Shown here: piece after piece, positions 12,246-22,515 of the stretch
Position numbering within the stretch: position 1 is the stretch's first letter
How the letters are laid out: every line of letters begins with the position of its first letter
NCBI GenBank assembly: GCA_963729045.1
Contig: CAVSMN010000012.1
Location: forward strand, 128,001 to 192,000
DNA from: an uncultured Nitrososphaeraceae archaeon
Lineage (GTDB): Archaea > Thermoproteota > Nitrososphaeria > Nitrososphaerales > Nitrososphaeraceae
Direction: 5' to 3'
DNA length: 64,000 bases
The notes under the pieces: generated by a model
The model's input: only the letters and a program-made list of their open reading frames with translations
Told to the model about the DNA's origin: nothing
Databases searched by the model: none
Made by a program: the position numbers and the translations under genes

Positions 12246-12813
12246 TCAGCTTTCCGGGTTAATGTCACCAATAAGCTTTGAAGATTCAATTACACTTACA
12301 ACTTGTAAATCATCGCTACCTGAAATAATTTTCGATAAAGTTGGTTTTGCCTCCTTTCCCAATATCATTGCCTCCTTTCCCTTCCGCATTAATACCAAAG
12401 TCATGCTATTTTCTGTTAAAGTATGGGCAAAATTCTTGGCTAAATCCAACTGCTGTTGGAAAGTTGATTCTTTATCTGTCATGGAGTGAATGAATTCCTT
12501 GGCCCCATCCAGCTTATCCAATATTTTATCTACCGAGCTTTCGTTTTCCCTACCATTTGGTAAAACTTTATCTTTGGAGGTATCGCTGCTGACTTCCTTT
12601 AAGGAAATCAAACAATTCCGGTTCTAGTATGTCGATACTAATTTTGTTTGATTGGTTTTCGGAAGTAGCAACGATATCTATGGCTGATTTATTCTGGATT
12701 TCAATATGTAATTTTCCACTTTTAATAGTCTTTATTGATTTTGCTAACTTGTCAATCAAAGAATTGCTGGACTTTCCAATCTTCTTGTCGTCAATGTCTG
12801 TCAATCCAATCAA
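12246..12813 (-). CDS. hypothetical protein, probably one gene split by a frameshift near 12600
   Basis: two overlapping same-strand ORFs (12568-12813 and 12246-12611) with protein-like composition. Confidence 0.55.
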
Positions 12814-12880
12814 ATCTCAATTATATGTTGGAAGGCCTCTAAGGGCCTGCTTGTCATAAAATTCAGACTGATTAATATCA

Positions 12881-13207
12881 TTAGTTGACTTCATTATTGC
12901 TGTCATAGCCTTGAATATCCTCTCTACTTGGGATTTCTTTACCTTTCTTCTCCTCAAAGCTTCCGTTGTTTTTACTGTGAACTTCCGCAGATATTCTAAT
13001 TTTACCGTTCACAGTAAGGCTGCCACTGCAAATCTGGCACCCTTCATGACCTTGAGCTTTTGGCATTTCTATCTTGAGGTTATCAAATGAATATGTAACT
13101 ACTGCACCCTTTCCAGTTAACTTTTCAATTAATTGTTCCAAAATTGGCGGACCTTCTTCTGATATTTTATGGGTTATCTTATTTAGATTATTATTAAATT
13201 GATTCAT
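12881..13207 (-). CDS. hypothetical protein
   Basis: 108-aa ATG ORF with TATA-like sequence upstream. Confidence 0.65.
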   Translation of the reverse strand: MNQFNNNLNKITHKISEEGPPILEQLIEKLTGKGAVVTYSFDNLKIEMPKAQGHEGCQICSGSLTVNGKIRISAEVHSKNNGSFEEKKGKEIPSREDIQGYDSNNEVN

Positions 13208-13946
13208 TCTAGATACGATTATATAATTACATGAAACGTTATAAATCGTATATGTTTTGTTATCTTAATATCTAAGATTTAATTACACATATTTTCATCA
13301 ATGTCAGGAAATATTTCTCTTCCATTAAACTACTGAGATAACTGGGTCGCTTTATGGAACTTTATAGAGATCAAATAATAATTACTTGCGCTTTACAACT
13401 TTAGAAACATTATTTATGGAATCAAAAATGTCATTAACATATTACCTTAATCACTTAGAATTATCTCATCCTGGTTTTAGGATTACTTACAACTGGTCAA
13501 TTTATTGTAATACAAAATTAAAAGCTTTTGAAACCTGGCTATTAACACAATATATGAGAGAAATAGTGAAAAAAACTAACTTTAGTGTAAGCATATTCTA
13601 GGATGAGATGATTTGCAAGAACTTTTGAGTTGAAGAATAAATATGAATTATTTGTCATCTGAAGTCTAACAAAATGCTGATTTAGGGTGTTAGCAAATTT
13701 GTCAAATAGTTGATTAATAATTATTAAATAGTGAGAAGATTTTGCATTCTAAGACCTTTATGGGTTATGATAGTCATACAGAAGTGCTTGAAAAGCGTTG
13801 GATGTCTACTGGGTCTTTAATATTAGTCTTTGATTTATTGAATAGTTTCCTCTGGCTTTGTCCATTGAAAGAATACTGTGGCAGGTCATAATTGTTATTA
13901 AAAGAAACAAAGAACTTTAAATGGATTATGTGGATTATTTTAGTAG

Positions 13947-15242: not shown

Positions 15243-15753
15243 ATATTGTCTATTGAGTGGTTGTTATATTATTTGTTAATTCTGTATGAATGATCTATAC
15301 AAAAATCAATTTGAGAAGCCTTCGACCAAAAAATTTACATAGTTTATTTAATCAAAACCAGCATTTCAATATTTAACCTGGATTAGATGTACTTTTCTAG
15401 AATTACTAGATTCTAAGTGTATTTCGATTAATGCATATGGACTTATTATTGCATCAGCACCATATTTTACTACATTATCAGGAGGGCAAAAGAATTACTC
15501 TATATGATTAAAATATTAAACACTACTTGATATTTTTAAGATTGGTATGTTGGGCTCTACCAAAAGATAGTGGGCGTTGTTGCAAAGTCTAAAATCCATA
15601 CATAGTAAAAATAAAAAACCTGATTTTACAAGTATATTTTTATAGACTACTGATTATTAGAATTCATGCAAGACCATTCTACTAGTATACAAGAGAATGG
15701 AATGAATTCAATCAGTAACCGTAAAAAGGTTAGGATCAGGAAAAAGACCGAGT

Positions 15754-16500
15754 ATGAAAATGAGCACTGATAATTTGGAGGAAAGGTTGATTGAAAAAAA
15801 TTCTAAAGAATCACCAGAAACGTTGTTTGCAAACATAGTGGGATATGAGGACATTAAAAAAATTTTTAATTATGCTTTTAATTCATCGTTACCAGTTCAT
15901 ATTTTGCTGGTAGGTCCTCCCGGTTCTGCTAAAACCCTATTCTTGATGGAATGTATGAAACTGTCTCGTTCCTATTTTACATTGGGTAGTCACAGCACAA
16001 AAGCAGGAATGTTAGATTACTTATTCAATAACAGACCAAAAAATCTGATAATCGATGAAATTGAATACATGGCAATTAAAGATCAAGCAGCATTGCTTAG
16101 TTTAATGGAAACTGGAATATTAAGCGAAACCAAATATGAAAAAACTCGAAAATCAATCATGAGGACGTGGGTTTTTGCATCTTGTAATGACGAAAAAAAA
16201 CTTTTGACTCCACTTTTATCACGTTTCTTTGTGCTTTATTTTAAGAAATATGATTACGCTACTTTTGAAAAGATAGCAAACCACATTTTAGCAATTGAGT
16301 GTAATATGGATTTTGAAGTCTCAACCCTGATTGCGCACTTAGTTTGGAATAAACTGAAATCCAGGGATATAAGGGATTGTATAAAAATAGGTCGAATTTG
16401 TAATAATAAAGAAGATGTTTACATGATAGTAAAGACTCTGATAAGGTATGACAACACAAACGCTGGTAACATTAAGACTGGTAACATTAAGGATCAATGA
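15754..16500 (+). CDS. AAA+ ATPase, single domain
   Basis: Walker A GPPGSAKT, Walker B IIDE, ALLSLME, PLLSRF Arg finger. Confidence 0.85.
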   Translation: MKMSTDNLEERLIEKNSKESPETLFANIVGYEDIKKIFNYAFNSSLPVHILLVGPPGSAKTLFLMECMKLSRSYFTLGSHSTKAGMLDYLFNNRPKNLIIDEIEYMAIKDQAALLSLMETGILSETKYEKTRKSIMRTWVFASCNDEKKLLTPLLSRFFVLYFKKYDYATFEKIANHILAIECNMDFEVSTLIAHLVWNKLKSRDIRDCIKIGRICNNKEDVYMIVKTLIRYDNTNAGNIKTGNIKDQ

Positions 16501-16585
16501 CCGAAAACATTTAGAGGCATTTATTTGAAGTTCTTTGCCATTTTCTCATTACTTAATATGAGTAGAATAATTTAGTGTTCCTATT

Positions 16586-17771
16586 TTGAATAAAACATCC
16601 AATTTGAATAAAACACTCAAAAAATTGAAAATTTTTATCTGTGGTCCAACTCTGTATGAAAAAAGCCACTTGGGGCATGCTAGAATTTTTATTTTTTTTA
16701 ATTTTTTGATTAATTATTACAAATGTTTGGGACAGTCTCCTATTACCATAGTACAATTGACTGATGTCGATCCCAAAATATTTGCCAAAATCAAGACAGC
16801 TAATGATAATGATAATATCTCACTTGAGAGTATTACCATGCGTCATCTAACCCAATTGATAAAAGACTTACAAAAATTACAAGTTATTAACAATTTCACC
16901 TTCACCAGGGTGTCTAGCTTTCAGGTTCAAATGATGAACCAAATAATAAAATTACTTGAACTCACAAAGGCTTACTCGTATGGTGGCAATATTTATCTTA
17001 AAATAGATTCAGATATCCAGAGTCCTTTTGGTCTTACACTCAGAGAATTGGATAACATGCCAATTGATATCGCACCAGGTAAACTGGATCAAAAAGATAT
17101 TATGCTTTGGAATGCTGAGAATTTCTATGAATCTATCTATTAAGGGCGACGAGCGCTCCGAATTTTATTTTAGGAATTTAGTTAGCGGGATCCCTGGATG
17201 GCATTTTCAAGATTTTCAAATAATAAAATCTCTTTTTGACAATCACTACGATATACATGGAGGGGCAGGCGAGTTAGTCTACCCTCACCATGAATTCATT
17301 TACAGAATTTCCCATCAAATACAAGGGACCAGCCATCAAAGTAAAAAAAAACCAATGTGGATTCACATAGGTATTTTAAAGATCAATTCTGAAAAGATGT
17401 CTAATTCTAGAGGTAATACAATCACTATCAGTGACTTTCTAAACAAATATTCTCCAAATTCTCTAAAAATACTTTTTTTGGGTGAACACTACGACAAAGA
17501 CTTTAGTTTTGACGAAAAGAAATTGTCGGATGCTATTGTTGTAGATAATGAAATTTCATCGTATTTTGCATCGGAATACGTCAAGAACGGAAAATTAGTA
17601 GAAACATTGAACGAATCTGATGCACATAAGTTTTCCGCGTTTTTAAGAATTTTGGATAATAATTATGATACAAAATCCGCAATCAGTTATATAAGAAAGT
17701 GTATTAGAGCTTCTGAAAATGCTAGTTATGTAAAGAAGATGACCGATTTACTTGGATTACAGTATCATTGA
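16586..17771 (+). CDS. cysteinyl-tRNA synthetase-like paralogue (class I, no anticodon domain), frameshift near 17140
   Basis: CGPTLY, HLGH (HIGH), TDVD, GIPGWH, DIHGG..PHHE, KMSNS; ends at LLGL with about 395 aa total. Confidence 0.85.
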
Positions 17772-18602
17772 TAGCCTGAAATCAAATGAAATTGAATTTT
17801 GTAAGAGTTGGAGCAATCAGACAATTAACTTTAATGACTCCTTTCGCATTTTAGCTAATCGTGAATTAAAAGGCGACTATTTTCTTAATCGAGTGATTTT
17901 GACTGTTGGAATTGAGGACTCTAAGACGTGAGAGAGAAATGCATTTCAACAATCATGTCAAGACTAAAAGAAATTTCCAAACAACAAGATATTGATGTTT
18001 ATGTTCATATCAATGATAACCTATCATTCCTTAAATCGATACTTGAACAGAACGGCTTGAGAAAAATTGATAAATTGACAGGATTGGTTAACGTCATAAA
18101 GGGTCAAAAATTCCTTTCAAAAAATGAATCTAAAAAACAAGAACCAGTAGTTAATGAAGAAACATGTAGGGTGGTCAGGTCCGTCGATGAATTCGAAGAA
18201 TGGTTAGATGTTTATTCAACTTCATTTGAAATCGATACAGAAAGAAGAACCACTATTCGAACTAGTCTGCAAAGAGATAATTTTAGAGAAAGTAAATTTA
18301 TTTTGTATGAACAAAAACTCCAAGATAAAACAAATGGGCACAATTTAAGACCAGTCGGATGCTGCTTGCTTTTCCCTACAAATGACGTCCTGGGGTTATA
18401 CTGCTTAGGCACCGATCAGAAGTTTCGAAATATGGGTATTGCTACAAGCCTTTTAAATTTTGCAATAACTTATGCCAAAATGAATGGATTTAATCTTTTA
18501 GGGCTTCAGGCGCTGCATAGTGATCACATAATAGGATTTTATCAAAGACGATATTTCACAACAGTTTATACTGATGCTATATTTTCTATTCCTATCAGTT
18601 AG
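17752..18602 (+). CDS. GNAT-family acetyltransferase, frameshift near 17925
   Basis: C-terminal LYCLGTDQKFRNMGIATSLL acetyl-CoA motif; N-terminal part read from TTG 17752 (DYSIIDSLKSNEIEFCKSWS...DYFLNRV) in another frame. Confidence 0.8.
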
Positions 18603-19590
18603 ATTTAATATATCATTTGACCCACTTATTAAAAATCTATTGACATTTCTTGACTGTATACAGGAAGATCTCATTTTTCCAGTATTCGTATATGAGAACG
18701 AGCACGCTTACAAACAAAGCTTGAATTCTGGATACATGAACAACTCAAAGGTATTTTCGAAAAAATTAATCAATAGATTTGAAGAATTGGCTCAGCTAAA
18801 AATATCTAACTTGTTGTTATTTGGTATACCAAAAAAAAGAGACGGCATGGGAAGTGAAGCTTTTAATAGGAATGGTGTGATTCAGCAGGCAATTCAAACA
18901 ATTAAAAAAACTTTTGGCAAAAAATTTAACATTCTCTCAGACGTTTGTGTGTGCCAATATAATACTAGCGGACATTGTGGTGTCACTAATGGCACAATAG
19001 AGGATACTAACCAACCTAAGCATGTAATTAGAGTAGATAATGACAAGACCTTAAATATTCTTGGAAAAATTTCATTGAGCCTTTGCGAAAGTGGGACCGA
19101 TTTCATAGCCCCATCGTCAATGATGGATGGTCAAATCTTGTACCTTTCCAATTTGTTAAAGAAGAGCGGGTTTAAAAAAGTCAAAATTATGAGTTATTCT
19201 GCAAAACATAATTCTTGTCTATACTCGCCATTTCGTAATTATAATTATCATAATACTAGCTTTATAGATAAATCAAGTTATCAAAGTAATTTTAACAATC
19301 CTAGTGAATCAATGCGGGAAATTTTACATGATGTAAAAGAGGGATCGGATTGGGTAATGATAAAACCTTCGTTTTGGTATATGGATTTGGTAAGATTAGC
19401 TAAAAATCTAGTGGATGTCCCTCTGGTGGTTCAGAATGTCTCGGGTGAGTATGCTTTACTAAAAGAAGGAGCAAAAATAGACCAAGTTGACCAACAGGAA
19501 TGGATAGTTCAATATCTCAAAAGTTTAAGAAGGGCTGGTGCCGATAAAATAATTTCTTATTTGATGCTCGATTTGTTTGATGAATTTTGA
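18574..19590 (+). CDS. hemB: porphobilinogen synthase (ALA dehydratase), divergent
   Basis: DVCVCQY..GHCG Zn motif, APSSMMDG, SYSAK and MIKP catalytic lysines, VSGEY. Confidence 0.85.
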   Translation: MLYFLFLSVRFNISFDPLIKNLLTFLDCIQEDLIFPVFVYENEHAYKQSLNSGYMNNSKVFSKKLINRFEELAQLKISNLLLFGIPKKRDGMGSEAFNRNGVIQQAIQTIKKTFGKKFNILSDVCVCQYNTSGHCGVTNGTIEDTNQPKHVIRVDNDKTLNILGKISLSLCESGTDFIAPSSMMDGQILYLSNLLKKSGFKKVKIMSYSAKHNSCLYSPFRNYNYHNTSFIDKSSYQSNFNNPSESMREILHDVKEGSDWVMIKPSFWYMDLVRLAKNLVDVPLVVQNVSGEYALLKEGAKIDQVDQQEWIVQYLKSLRRAGADKIISYLMLDLFDEF

Positions 19591-20333: not shown

Positions 20334-21407
20334 TTATTGATTGGGATTTATTATGGCACGTCCAATGATTTTACCATTCTTTAAATCGTGTAAGGCCTCA
20401 TTGACCTGGTCAAGAGCGAATGTCCTATCCAAGACAGTACGTACTTTTCCATCGGAGGCAAGTTTCACTAATTCAGTCAAATCCTGAAAAGTTCCTGTAT
20501 AAGCTCCTGTCAGTGTATACCCTCTCAAAGGGATCATTGGTAAGTTCAATTCCATTGATCCACCAAATAGTCCAACCATAATTACCTTACCTCTTTTTCG
20601 TAACATATTAAATGAATTTACAGACGTAATATTGTTATTTACAAAGTCTATGACGACGTCTGTTCCCGAACCATTGGTAAGGTCTTTGACCTCTTTTACC
20701 ACATCTTGTTTCTCTTTGGTATTAATGATGTTATCTGCACCAAGCTTTCTTGCTTCTGCCAATTTTTGATCATTAACATCTATAACAGTTATTCTTGATT
20801 TGAATATAGCTTTAGCAACTTGTACCGCCATAAGCCCTAGTCCACCAGCCCCTACGATTACAATATTATGCCTATCTTCCAAACCTGGGATTGGCTTTGC
20901 TTTTTTTACTGCGTTGTACGCTGTCAATCCAGAGCAAGCCAGTGATGATGCAGAATCAAATTCAAGTTGGTCAAGTTTAATCAAAAACTTTGAATCTGGG
21001 ATTAAAACATATTGCGCATACCCTCCATTTTGATAAATTCCAAGGGTTTTCGGATTATCACATAGATTCTGTTCGCCAGATAAGCAAGCAGGACAAGTCC
21101 CCTCACCCAACCAAGGGTAAACCAACACCTTATCACCTACATTGAAGTTATTTACACTGTTACCAACCTCTTCTATTGTTCCAGATATTTCATGGCCAGG
21201 TATCAGAGGAAACTTAACTCCTCTATCTTCAACCTTCATGAAGACGCCTTTGGGTCCTGCATATCCGCCCTCCCATAAATGAAGGTCGCTATGACACACG
21301 CCAGTTGCTGCAACTCTGACCAAAACTTGATTTCCTTCAGGTTTAGGTTTTTCTACTTCATTAATTACTAATGGTTCATTTGTTTTAATAATTTGAGCCC
21401 CTTTCAT
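20334..21407 (-). CDS. adh: Zn-dependent alcohol dehydrogenase
   Basis: GVCHSDLH, GHE, CPAC...C, GAGGLG; start placed at ATG 21407 (MKGAQII). Confidence 0.9.
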   Translation of the reverse strand: MKGAQIIKTNEPLVINEVEKPKPEGNQVLVRVAATGVCHSDLHLWEGGYAGPKGVFMKVEDRGVKFPLIPGHEISGTIEEVGNSVNNFNVGDKVLVYPWLGEGTCPACLSGEQNLCDNPKTLGIYQNGGYAQYVLIPDSKFLIKLDQLEFDSASSLACSGLTAYNAVKKAKPIPGLEDRHNIVIVGAGGLGLMAVQVAKAIFKSRITVIDVNDQKLAEARKLGADNIINTKEKQDVVKEVKDLTNGSGTDVVIDFVNNNITSVNSFNMLRKRGKVIMVGLFGGSMELNLPMIPLRGYTLTGAYTGTFQDLTELVKLASDGKVRTVLDRTFALDQVNEALHDLKNGKIIGRAIINPNQ

Positions 21408-21815
21408 ATCAAAATCAAGGTCTCCTTGTTTAATTATCTTTACTAACGAATAAGTATTCAAAAGAATATATTAATTCATATTCCAAACCTATTGATGTCA
21501 ATGATGACGACGAAGAGCCGTCTGAAATTACATGGTGACGAAGATTATGAGGTACCTGAGACATCAAACTTTTCAAAGGATGGATATTATAGATGTAATT
21601 CCACCCTATTCATGAAATTAAAATAACATCCAAAGCATATACAATTATTGTGGTTAAACTCTTTAAAAATCGGAAATGTTTTGGTACTAAAGACAAGGAT
21701 TGTACTACCATTTATATTTTTTTAGCAGTACTATATTTGAAAAGTTACTTGATAAACTGCGGAATAATTTTGTTTAATGAATTTTTGTAATTCATGAGCT
21801 GTAAAATTATATACG

Positions 21816-22515
21816 GTGAAAGTTCATGATAAATCAAATTTAATGAATTCGATAGAACGGTCCCTATTATGTTCGATATATAGCAATAATTTGATTGATA
21901 GTCGAATTCCTAATCCCATATTACCTTATTTAATGAAAAAATTGGAACTCGATGTGACCTTTTACATTAATCAATTATCTAAACTTGAAGACCTAGGCTT
22001 AATTGTTACAAAACAAAATGAACGAGATTCTGAAATAAGCTCTAAGTAATATGACTTGTACACTTACGAACTTGGGTCGTGAACAAATTAAGGTTGTGCT
22101 TGTAGGCGGGGTATTTGATCTACTTCATGTTGGTCATATTCATACCCTAAAATCTGCAAAATTATTAGGCGATGTCCTAATAATTGTAGTTGCAACTGAT
22201 TCCACAGTTAGCAGCTTGAAAAAAAATCGCAAGATTTACCATGATGAAAAAAGCCGGTTAGAGCTAGTTTCATCTATAAAATTTGTAGATAAAGCCGTAA
22301 TAGGAAGAAAAAAATCGATATACGATACAGTAGAATTCGTCAGGCCAGATATCATAGCCTTAGGATATGACCAAATTCATGATGAAATAGCGATGAAAAA
22401 GAATTGCTTTGATCGAGGCTTGAATCTAGATGTAGTCAGGCTTTCTTCTCCACTTCCCGAACTCAAAAGTTCCTTAATTAAAAGCGAGTTGGGAAACTCT
22501 TTTTATGATCTTTAA
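21816..22515 (+). CDS. ribL: FAD synthase (cytidylyltransferase family) with N-terminal wHTH-like extension, broken near 22049
   Basis: GGVFDLLHVGH, PDIIALGYDQ; adjacent to ribK; the upstream 77-aa ORF looks like the N-terminal domain. Confidence 0.8.

Follow-up and report, generated by a model that had tools for sequence, protein, structure and literature searches.

The 64,000-nt stretch of contig CAVSMN010000012.1 analyzed here (the window) belongs to assembly GCA_963729045.1 of an uncultured Nitrososphaeraceae archaeon and carries, on its + strand, a truncated cysteinyl-tRNA synthetase (CysRS) paralogue that comprises the catalytic domain only (16586..17771), directly followed by a gene for a tandem-GNAT acetyltransferase (17752..18602). 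With moderate confidence, we propose that this pair encodes a CysRS-derived, tRNA-independent ligase and a tandem GNAT that together follow the logic of MshC and MshD, that the frameshifts interrupting both genes in the window are artefacts, and that the adjoining HemB paralogue is a separate matter. Throughout, relatives, contigs, sequencing runs and loci are coded G, C, X and L, respectively; G000 is the genome of the window, and "the genus" denotes Ca. Nitrosocosmicus.

In Actinomycetota, MshC is the ligase that joins cysteine to glucosaminyl-inositol (GlcN-Ins) and MshD is mycothiol synthase, so that ligation is followed by N-acetylation. The pair in the window is similarly built from a CysRS-derived enzyme without an anticodon-binding domain and an adjoining two-domain GNAT. 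A preliminary description of this DNA had drawn the parallel with MshC and MshD; it stands with respect to architecture and to the presence of MshD among the fold matches of the GNAT, but it does not extend to family membership, as both proteins fail the family thresholds.

Conservation of the ligase and acetyltransferase genes

Four genes are tightly packed on the + strand between 15.7 and 19.6 kb, in the order AAA+ ATPase, CysRS paralogue, GNAT and HemB paralogue. The CysRS-like frame stops at a TGA (17769-17771), the GNAT probably starts at an in-frame TTG (17752) that overlaps the end of the CysRS paralogue by 20 nt, the GNAT frame ends at 18602, and the HemB-like open reading frame (ORF) extends from an ATG at 18574 to 19590. 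This ATG is not an ATG in G004, so the exact GNAT/HemB overlap is uncertain; uncertain too is the choice among the candidate start codons of the CysRS paralogue at 16586, 16604 and 16625. The 5′ end of the latter gene contains an 18-base direct duplication (TTGAATAAAAC...) at 16573-16590 relative to G022 and G004, which seems real in the lineage of the window because the near-identical contigs of runs X1, X2 and X5 align there without gaps. Three same-strand genes overlapping head to tail had been described previously. Their coordinates and order hold, but the CysRS-like gene and the GNAT are not single frames in the window, two frameshifts having been missed. The same order is found with intact frames in the loci of six relatives (G004, G020, G017, G011, G010 and G022) and, with a broken CysRS paralogue, in a seventh (G018); because it recurs in these loci, the four-gene arrangement is not due to chance.

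The GNAT lies directly 3′ of the short CysRS on the same strand, usually overlapping it, and this linkage reaches well beyond the genus. The two genes are adjacent in five of the six other families of the order (G031, G028, G030, G038 and G037), and in the sixth (G025) a peptidase gene lies between them. Within the family, 15 of 16 sampled loci, picked for long contigs, show the adjacency, while G353 has no ligase within 9 kb. Of 120 other genomes of the family, 75 have a member of the GNAT family (the unpublished G410 is included in this count), as do 16 of 18 genera, with one genus at 0/13. At the level of the phylum, it was detected in 5 of 300 other genomes sampled; two of the three strong matches adjoin the ligase (G115 and G214), and the third, on a short contig of G224, does not. 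Thus, the synteny across Nitrososphaerales that had been suggested as a test is seen for the ligase and GNAT, whereas linkage to HemB is restricted to the genus.

Among 24 other genomes of the genus, an intact CysRS paralogue of 373-418 aa was identified in 15. G018 carries a broken copy and G002 no more than a remnant, and no trace of the gene was found in seven of the 24 (G006, G007, G008, G012, G014, G015 and G024). Pairwise ratios of nonsynonymous to synonymous substitution (dN/dS) between intact members of the genus are 0.13-0.22 for the ligase and 0.28-0.47 for the GNAT, compared with 0.06-0.23 for neighbouring genes. By these estimates, the pair is under purifying selection, and comparison of the sequences indicates that the short CysRS and the tandem GNAT constitute a conserved two-gene module. 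In addition, a contig assembled from an RNA library covers positions 17618-17845, that is, the ligase/GNAT junction.

The search for a third gene of this module in other families yielded varied neighbours only, namely an M20 peptidase, a glycosyltransferase, an epimerase, a radical SAM enzyme, an F420-type oxidoreductase and deoxyhypusine synthase. An MshB-type deacetylase was likewise rejected as a co-varying gene, since the presence of PIG-L (the MshB/BshB family) does not track the pair.

A probable catalytic-domain descendant of an archaeal CysRS

The genome of the window encodes a separate full-length CysRS on C16, with the motif GWHIECS and a DALR_2 domain, and standard hemB on C6 and C14. 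The CysRS-like gene is thus an extra paralogue, as had been suspected, and not the only cysS of the genome. The proposed loss of the anticodon domain was also borne out: the C-terminal end of the genus paralogue corresponds to residue 423 of the 484-aa standard enzyme, and neither DALR_2 nor CysS_C is matched in the genus paralogues, whereas both are present in the full-length Asp-type enzyme of G035. All 33 aligned short paralogues stop near residues 421-424 of 484, apart from two with ragged alignment ends. On the catalytic domain, the genus paralogues score ~165 bits versus 406 bits for the standard enzyme, and in a quick maximum-likelihood tree they occupy a very long branch of 2.21 substitutions per site.

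Despite this divergence, the short ligase retains the class I core motifs CGPT, HxGH, TDID, WHxxD, PHHE and KMS(K/N)S. Residues C11, H20, G22, H23, T51, D52, W195, H196, D199, H224, H225, E226, K260 and M261 do not vary among the 18 short paralogues compared. Changes specific to the genus are GWHFQD for GWHIEC, KMSNS for KMSKS, and two residues inserted after PHHE. All 18 sequences have Asp at the position that we take to be the second zinc-binding Cys of E. coli CysRS; the first Cys and the His are invariant, and cysteine binding may persist.

GWH[IV]ED is present in every one of the 120 best database matches to a short paralogue from another family, 83 of which are ~470 aa long, and the named records among them are cysteine--tRNA ligases from Bathyarchaeia, Korarchaeota, Zestosphaera and Nitrososphaerales. 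Moreover, G035 (96% complete) and G039 (82% complete) have no strong CysRS-family match other than the full-length Asp form. Because of these matches and these two genomes, the sequence data indicate that Asp is the normal state of a large archaeal (TACK-type) clade of CysRS. An earlier idea, that loss of the zinc-binding Cys signifies lost cysteine specificity, was therefore dropped, given that Asp also occurs in full-length archaeal CysRS. The short paralogue appears to be a truncated descendant of the Asp-type CysRS of TACK archaea. Its relatives are named cysteine--tRNA ligase and the Asp form is the sole strong CysRS in G035 and G039, which makes cysteine the likely substrate of the short ligase.

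Full-length TACK CysRS (GWHIED, PHHEAE) are the closest sequence relatives of the ligase and share with it the Asp, HxGH, KMSKS and the rest of the pocket. Unlike them, the ligase lacks the last ~60 residues (CysS_C) and is paired with a GNAT at nearly every locus; the Nitrosocosmicus form further differs by KMSNS, WHFQD and the two-residue insertion, and resides in a genome with another, full-length CysRS. The zinc site of MshC consists of Cys, Cys and His and binds the cysteine thiolate. The ligase of the pair departs from MshC in having Asp for the second zinc-binding Cys and in deriving, as far as its relatives suggest, from archaeal TACK-type CysRS and not from the actinobacterial line.

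Two further observations on full-length CysRS were made in passing. The enzymes of G037, G038, G033, G025, G031 and G030 (L049, L050, L053, L054, L055 and L057) have HIGN (LIGN in one) in place of HIGH, and they group as a well-supported clade of their own in the quick tree. Full-length Asp CysRS with GWHIED and PHHEAE were located at L059 (G035), L058 and L028 (G039) and L056 (G028) and among proteins P0025-P0120; how this type binds metal and selects cysteine may merit study.

The tandem GNAT and its structural relatives

If intact, the GNAT gene would encode ~282 aa; its assignment is based on matches to Acetyltransf_1, a family alignment and a structure model. Homologues from the genus and from other families align with it (alignment A1, 13 rows), and both halves contain conserved motifs. 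An AlphaFold model (mean predicted local distance difference test (pLDDT) score 86.4, predicted template modelling (pTM) score 0.85) displays two GNAT-like halves, and a Foldseek search against the PDB matched tandem GNATs over 260-300 columns, nearly the full length. The top match is 3frm, a protein of unknown function (E 3.5e-13), and the matches also include VipF, 4ius and glucosamine N-acetyltransferase. MshD structures are found at rank 10 (2c27, E 3.7e-10) and rank 14 (1ozp, E 4.5e-9), and FemX and MprF appear as weaker matches at ~1e-6. A complex prediction for the ligase (A2) and the GNAT (A1) gave a score of 0.00, which has no bearing either way.

FemX and MprF bring to mind a different explanation, in which the short enzyme is a second tRNA-charging CysRS, for example a backup under stress or metal limitation, and the GNAT is unrelated, regulatory or a Fem-like transferase using Cys-tRNA. 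Short ligases of the other families do pass the cysS profile (398-407 bits versus a cut-off of 340), public records call such proteins cysteine--tRNA ligase, and the catalytic motifs are kept. Yet the same short ligases are also without CysS_C, the anticodon-binding end is absent from all short forms, the genus version lies below the cysS threshold, and the short form is paired with a GNAT at nearly every locus examined. As for the GNAT, its matches to FemX and MprF are weaker than those to acetyltransferase-type tandem GNATs, and it contains an RxxGxA-type motif. Zinc-sparing CysRS and HemB paralogues are a known theme in bacteria (Zur- or COG0523-linked sets), which would suit a backup role, but the HemB paralogue has a standard Cys-rich metal motif and is thus no zinc-free substitute. 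We consider tRNA charging unlikely on these grounds, and the short proteins recorded as cysteine--tRNA ligase are probably not tRNA synthetases. A zinc-sparing island was ruled out in the same way, as the HemB paralogue retains its Cys-rich motif and Asp is usual in TACK-type CysRS.

Frameshifts in the window

In the window, the CysRS-like gene is divided between a first frame at 16571-17143, which covers positions 8-175 of tRNA-synt_1e, and a second at 17007-17771, which covers positions 186-299. The GNAT is divided between frames at 17743-17931 and 17925-18602, with the switch at ~17927. Comparison with the intact genes of G022, G004 and G020 revealed one additional base near 17130 and two near 17927.

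Logan contigs of at least 92% likeness were compared with the window; they come from sequencing runs of three other DNA studies and of a soil metatranscriptome (X15), and are ~99% identical to the window over 3.2 kb (33-35 differences). The base at 17131/17132 is absent from the contigs of X2, X5 and the RNA run X15, X1 having no coverage at this site, and the two bases at 17922-17934 are absent from those of X1, X2, X5 and X15. Splitting of ORFs is widespread in the assembly. Sixteen of 74 G004 ORFs (at least 100 aa) have their matches spread over two or more frames of the window, among them genes that are 97-99% identical; the standard cysS of the genome and the adjoining metS are also split (locus L001, G000:C16:84694-88311); and the contig ends C6:1-9840 and C14:9844-1 represent one 9.8-kb stretch at 97.2% identity. 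The 5′ end of the AAA+ gene is frameshifted as well, residues 1-38 of the G004 orthologue being encoded at 15654-15767 in another frame. Elsewhere in the window, a cytidylyltransferase-like gene (21798-22046 and 22039-22512) and two small genes at 12249-13264 are likewise split relative to G004. Because near-identical contigs lack the extra bases and ORFs are split assembly-wide, the frameshifts at ~17130 and ~17927 are most likely assembly errors.

A rival explanation holds that ligase and GNAT are decaying pseudogenes, broken and functionless in the organism of the window. Loss or decay of the pair is indeed seen in G002, G014 and a whole clade, G018 has a broken pair, and the long branch of the genus paralogues might be read in the same sense as the two frameshifts. 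In our view this is very unlikely, for an in-frame version exists in ~99% identical contigs from three DNA studies and one RNA run, the frameshifts occur throughout the assembly, in the standard cysS and metS too, 15 intact orthologues of the ligase exist in the genus, dN/dS for the pair is 0.13-0.47, and the catalytic motifs are conserved within the genus. More generally, these frameshifts are a warning about assembly quality, and any pseudogene call in the G000 assembly should be checked against reads.

The HemB paralogue and the AAA+ gene

The gene following the GNAT is a divergent porphobilinogen synthase (HemB) paralogue with an intact frame on the + strand (18574..19590). It matches the full Pfam ALAD profile (PF00490) at 308.5 bits (cut-off 24.6) and passes NCBIfam NF006762 by a narrow margin (298.1 bits versus 297). 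The standard HemB of the same genome scores 451 bits and is found on C6 and C14, twice through the duplicated contig end; the two proteins are 38% identical. Both lysine motifs (SYSAK and IKP), which we take to be catalytic in HemB, align with those of the standard HemB, as do SGEY and the C-terminal RAGAD. The Cys-rich metal motif is also kept, reading DVCVCQYNTSGHCG in the paralogue and DVCLCQYTSHGHCG in the standard copy. The paralogue differs by a 12-17 aa insertion after the metal motif and by an altered N-terminal arm that is not of the RLRRLR type. In G012, G015, G007, G024 and G017 (L037-L040 and L032), it has a poorly conserved insertion of 60-80 aa before the RAGAD helix, resulting in frames of 386-414 aa. 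Taken together, these features suggest that the paralogue is probably a separate, active second isozyme of porphobilinogen synthase.

Homologs 54-88% identical to that of the window were identified in 23 of the 24 other genus genomes, the exception being G001 (75% complete), where no such paralogue was found. Public records list it as porphobilinogen synthase of Candidatus Nitrosocosmicus. Outside the genus, each genome has at most one HemB match, with no more than 43% identity. In G012, G015, G007, G024, G006 and G014, the pair is gone and the HemB paralogue comes immediately after the AAA+ gene; in G002, no GNAT is left and the ligase persists only as a multi-frame remnant. The HemB paralogue is a genus-specific neighbour of the pair and not its obligate partner.

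The preliminary description had placed HemB in one pathway with the other two genes, in which the CysRS paralogue, the GNAT and the HemB paralogue would make an N-acetylated aminoacyl conjugate derived from aminolevulinic acid or a pyrrole. This part of it found no support, because the HemB paralogue stays where the pair has been deleted (six genomes with the paralogue after AAA+, and G002 with only the ligase remnant) and because the pair occurs elsewhere without it, in the six other families, in G115 and G214, and at 14 non-Nitrosocosmicus loci of the family. In favour of such a pathway, all three genes share a strand and lie close together or overlap, both in the window and in the loci of seven relatives, and the HemB paralogue is divergent in its 38% identity, its insertion after the metal motif and its altered N-terminal arm. 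However, gene order is conserved in the genus across the entire neighbourhood (2-hydroxyacid dehydrogenase, AAA+, the pair where present, HemB paralogue, a 146-aa gene and a zinc-dependent alcohol dehydrogenase), so that adjacency carries little information, and genomes outside the genus have at most one HemB match. A three-gene pathway is thus extremely unlikely.

The gene upstream of the pair was correctly described as that of an AAA+ ATPase. It encodes a small stand-alone protein (15754..16500, + strand) with matches to the Pfam MCM P-loop, AAA and AAA_5 families, is regarded here as a context gene only, and precedes the HemB paralogue at all loci of the genus that were examined, whether or not the pair is present. 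Such ATPases (MCM-type P-loop, ~250-290 aa) form several large clusters almost confined to Nitrososphaerota, where they are common, and have look-alikes in tailed phages. Two neighbours were considered for a functional link and rejected: the AAA+ gene as a chelatase-type partner of HemB, since it has weak MCM/RFC-type matches only and belongs to a family widespread in Nitrososphaerota, and the zinc-dependent alcohol dehydrogenase (20334-21461) as a mycothiol-dependent formaldehyde dehydrogenase, since it scores 147 bits against a cut-off of 513 and is generic.

Proposed function of the pair

Based on these data, we propose the following as the most likely mechanism for the pair. First, the ligase would use ATP to turn cysteine, or a close analogue of it, into the aminoacyl-adenylate. 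The activated residue would then be transferred, free of tRNA, to the amine of a small-molecule acceptor, and the tandem GNAT would finally acetylate the free alpha-amino group at the expense of acetyl-CoA. Translation is served by the separate full-length CysRS of the genome. In Ca. Nitrosocosmicus, the pair, situated between the AAA+ gene and the HemB paralogue, has diverged strongly and been lost several times. The acceptor is probably not GlcN-inositol. PIG-L does not track the pair, which makes a GlcN-based acceptor produced in the mycothiol way unlikely; the pair thus differs from the mycothiol pathway in having no consistent MshB-type deacetylase with it, MshA not having been searched for.

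Several observations speak against this proposal. On the side of the ligase, the subclade of the window has Arg or Lys (or Ile, depending on how the sequences are aligned) where E. coli CysRS has its fourth zinc ligand, and the second Lys of KMSKS is Asn there. The genus ligase fails both the cysS profile (TIGR00435, cut-off 340 bits), with 174.7 and 176.6 bits for genus orthologues, and the MshC profile (TIGR03447, cut-off 485.1), with 101.8 bits in G004 and 102.7 in G022; short ligases of other families attain 251-264 bits on the latter, also below its cut-off. With regard to the GNAT, 3frm and VipF rank above MshD among the structural matches, the Gly of the RxxGxA motif is substituted in one subclade of the genus, and the MshD profile (TIGR03448, cut-off 163.1 bits) gives 20.2 bits for the protein of G037 and no match for that of the genus. 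With respect to the locus, no conserved third gene was found beside the pair in other families, PIG-L was not found in four of the six pair-holding genomes of other families (G025, G028, G031 and G037) and is present in pair-less Nitrosocosmicus, and the RNA contig across the junction is weak evidence of transcription, as RNA libraries can contain DNA. Finally, the pair has been lost repeatedly within the genus, and is therefore dispensable there; that it was lost more than once follows from the position of G014 and G002 in the window's own subclade (HemB paralogue 82-87% identical to that of G004).

The general theme has precedents. Aravind, de Souza and Iyer (2010, PMC2922099) described paralogues of aminoacyl-tRNA synthetases (aaRS) beside GNATs and tailoring enzymes, with a predicted amide bond formed from the aminoacyl-adenylate, and the parts of that paper available to us treat systems with methionyl-tRNA synthetase (MetRS)-like enzymes and cyclodipeptide synthases (CDPS), cite MshC as the CysRS example and ask whether it is a one-off. 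The pair shares this theme of aaRS-paralogue amide ligases but is not among the systems treated in those parts, and neither "CysRS" nor "crenarchae" occurs in the paper. The 2020 review "Redox and Thiols in Archaea" (PMC7278568) states, in the portion available, that mycothiol and its genes are absent from archaea sequenced so far. In a full-text search of the literature, supplements excluded, no paper on the pair or on the second HemB of Nitrosocosmicus was found. A search by titles and the beginnings of abstracts for mycothiol in ammonia-oxidising archaea (AOA) returned metagenome surveys only and no thiol study of these organisms, a like search for cysteinyl-tRNA synthetase in Thaumarchaeota brought up nothing of apparent relevance, and the main text of a comparative paper on Nitrosocosmicus (PMC11559005) does not mention porphobilinogen, hemB, cysteinyl, cysS, acetyltransferase or thiol.

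Implications for ammonia-oxidising archaea

We know of no dedicated low-molecular-weight thiol in AOA. Roughly two in three genomes sampled from the main family of soil AOA carry the module, and the pair offers a testable candidate source of a thiol or a related N-acetyl-aminoacyl metabolite. It would also mean that a CysRS was converted, independently and for a second time, into a probable tRNA-independent ligase. More tentatively, we consider it possible, though less than probable, that this family, to which Nitrososphaera and Nitrosocosmicus belong, makes an N-acetyl-cysteinyl conjugate as a new archaeal low-molecular-weight thiol, and that the MshC/MshD-like pair arose independently from an ancestral TACK-type CysRS after a second CysRS had taken over translation. 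Several complete genomes carry the pair and sister species do not, so that a comparative test is possible; if the idea is true, the pair-less Nitrosocosmicus species would be natural knock-outs.

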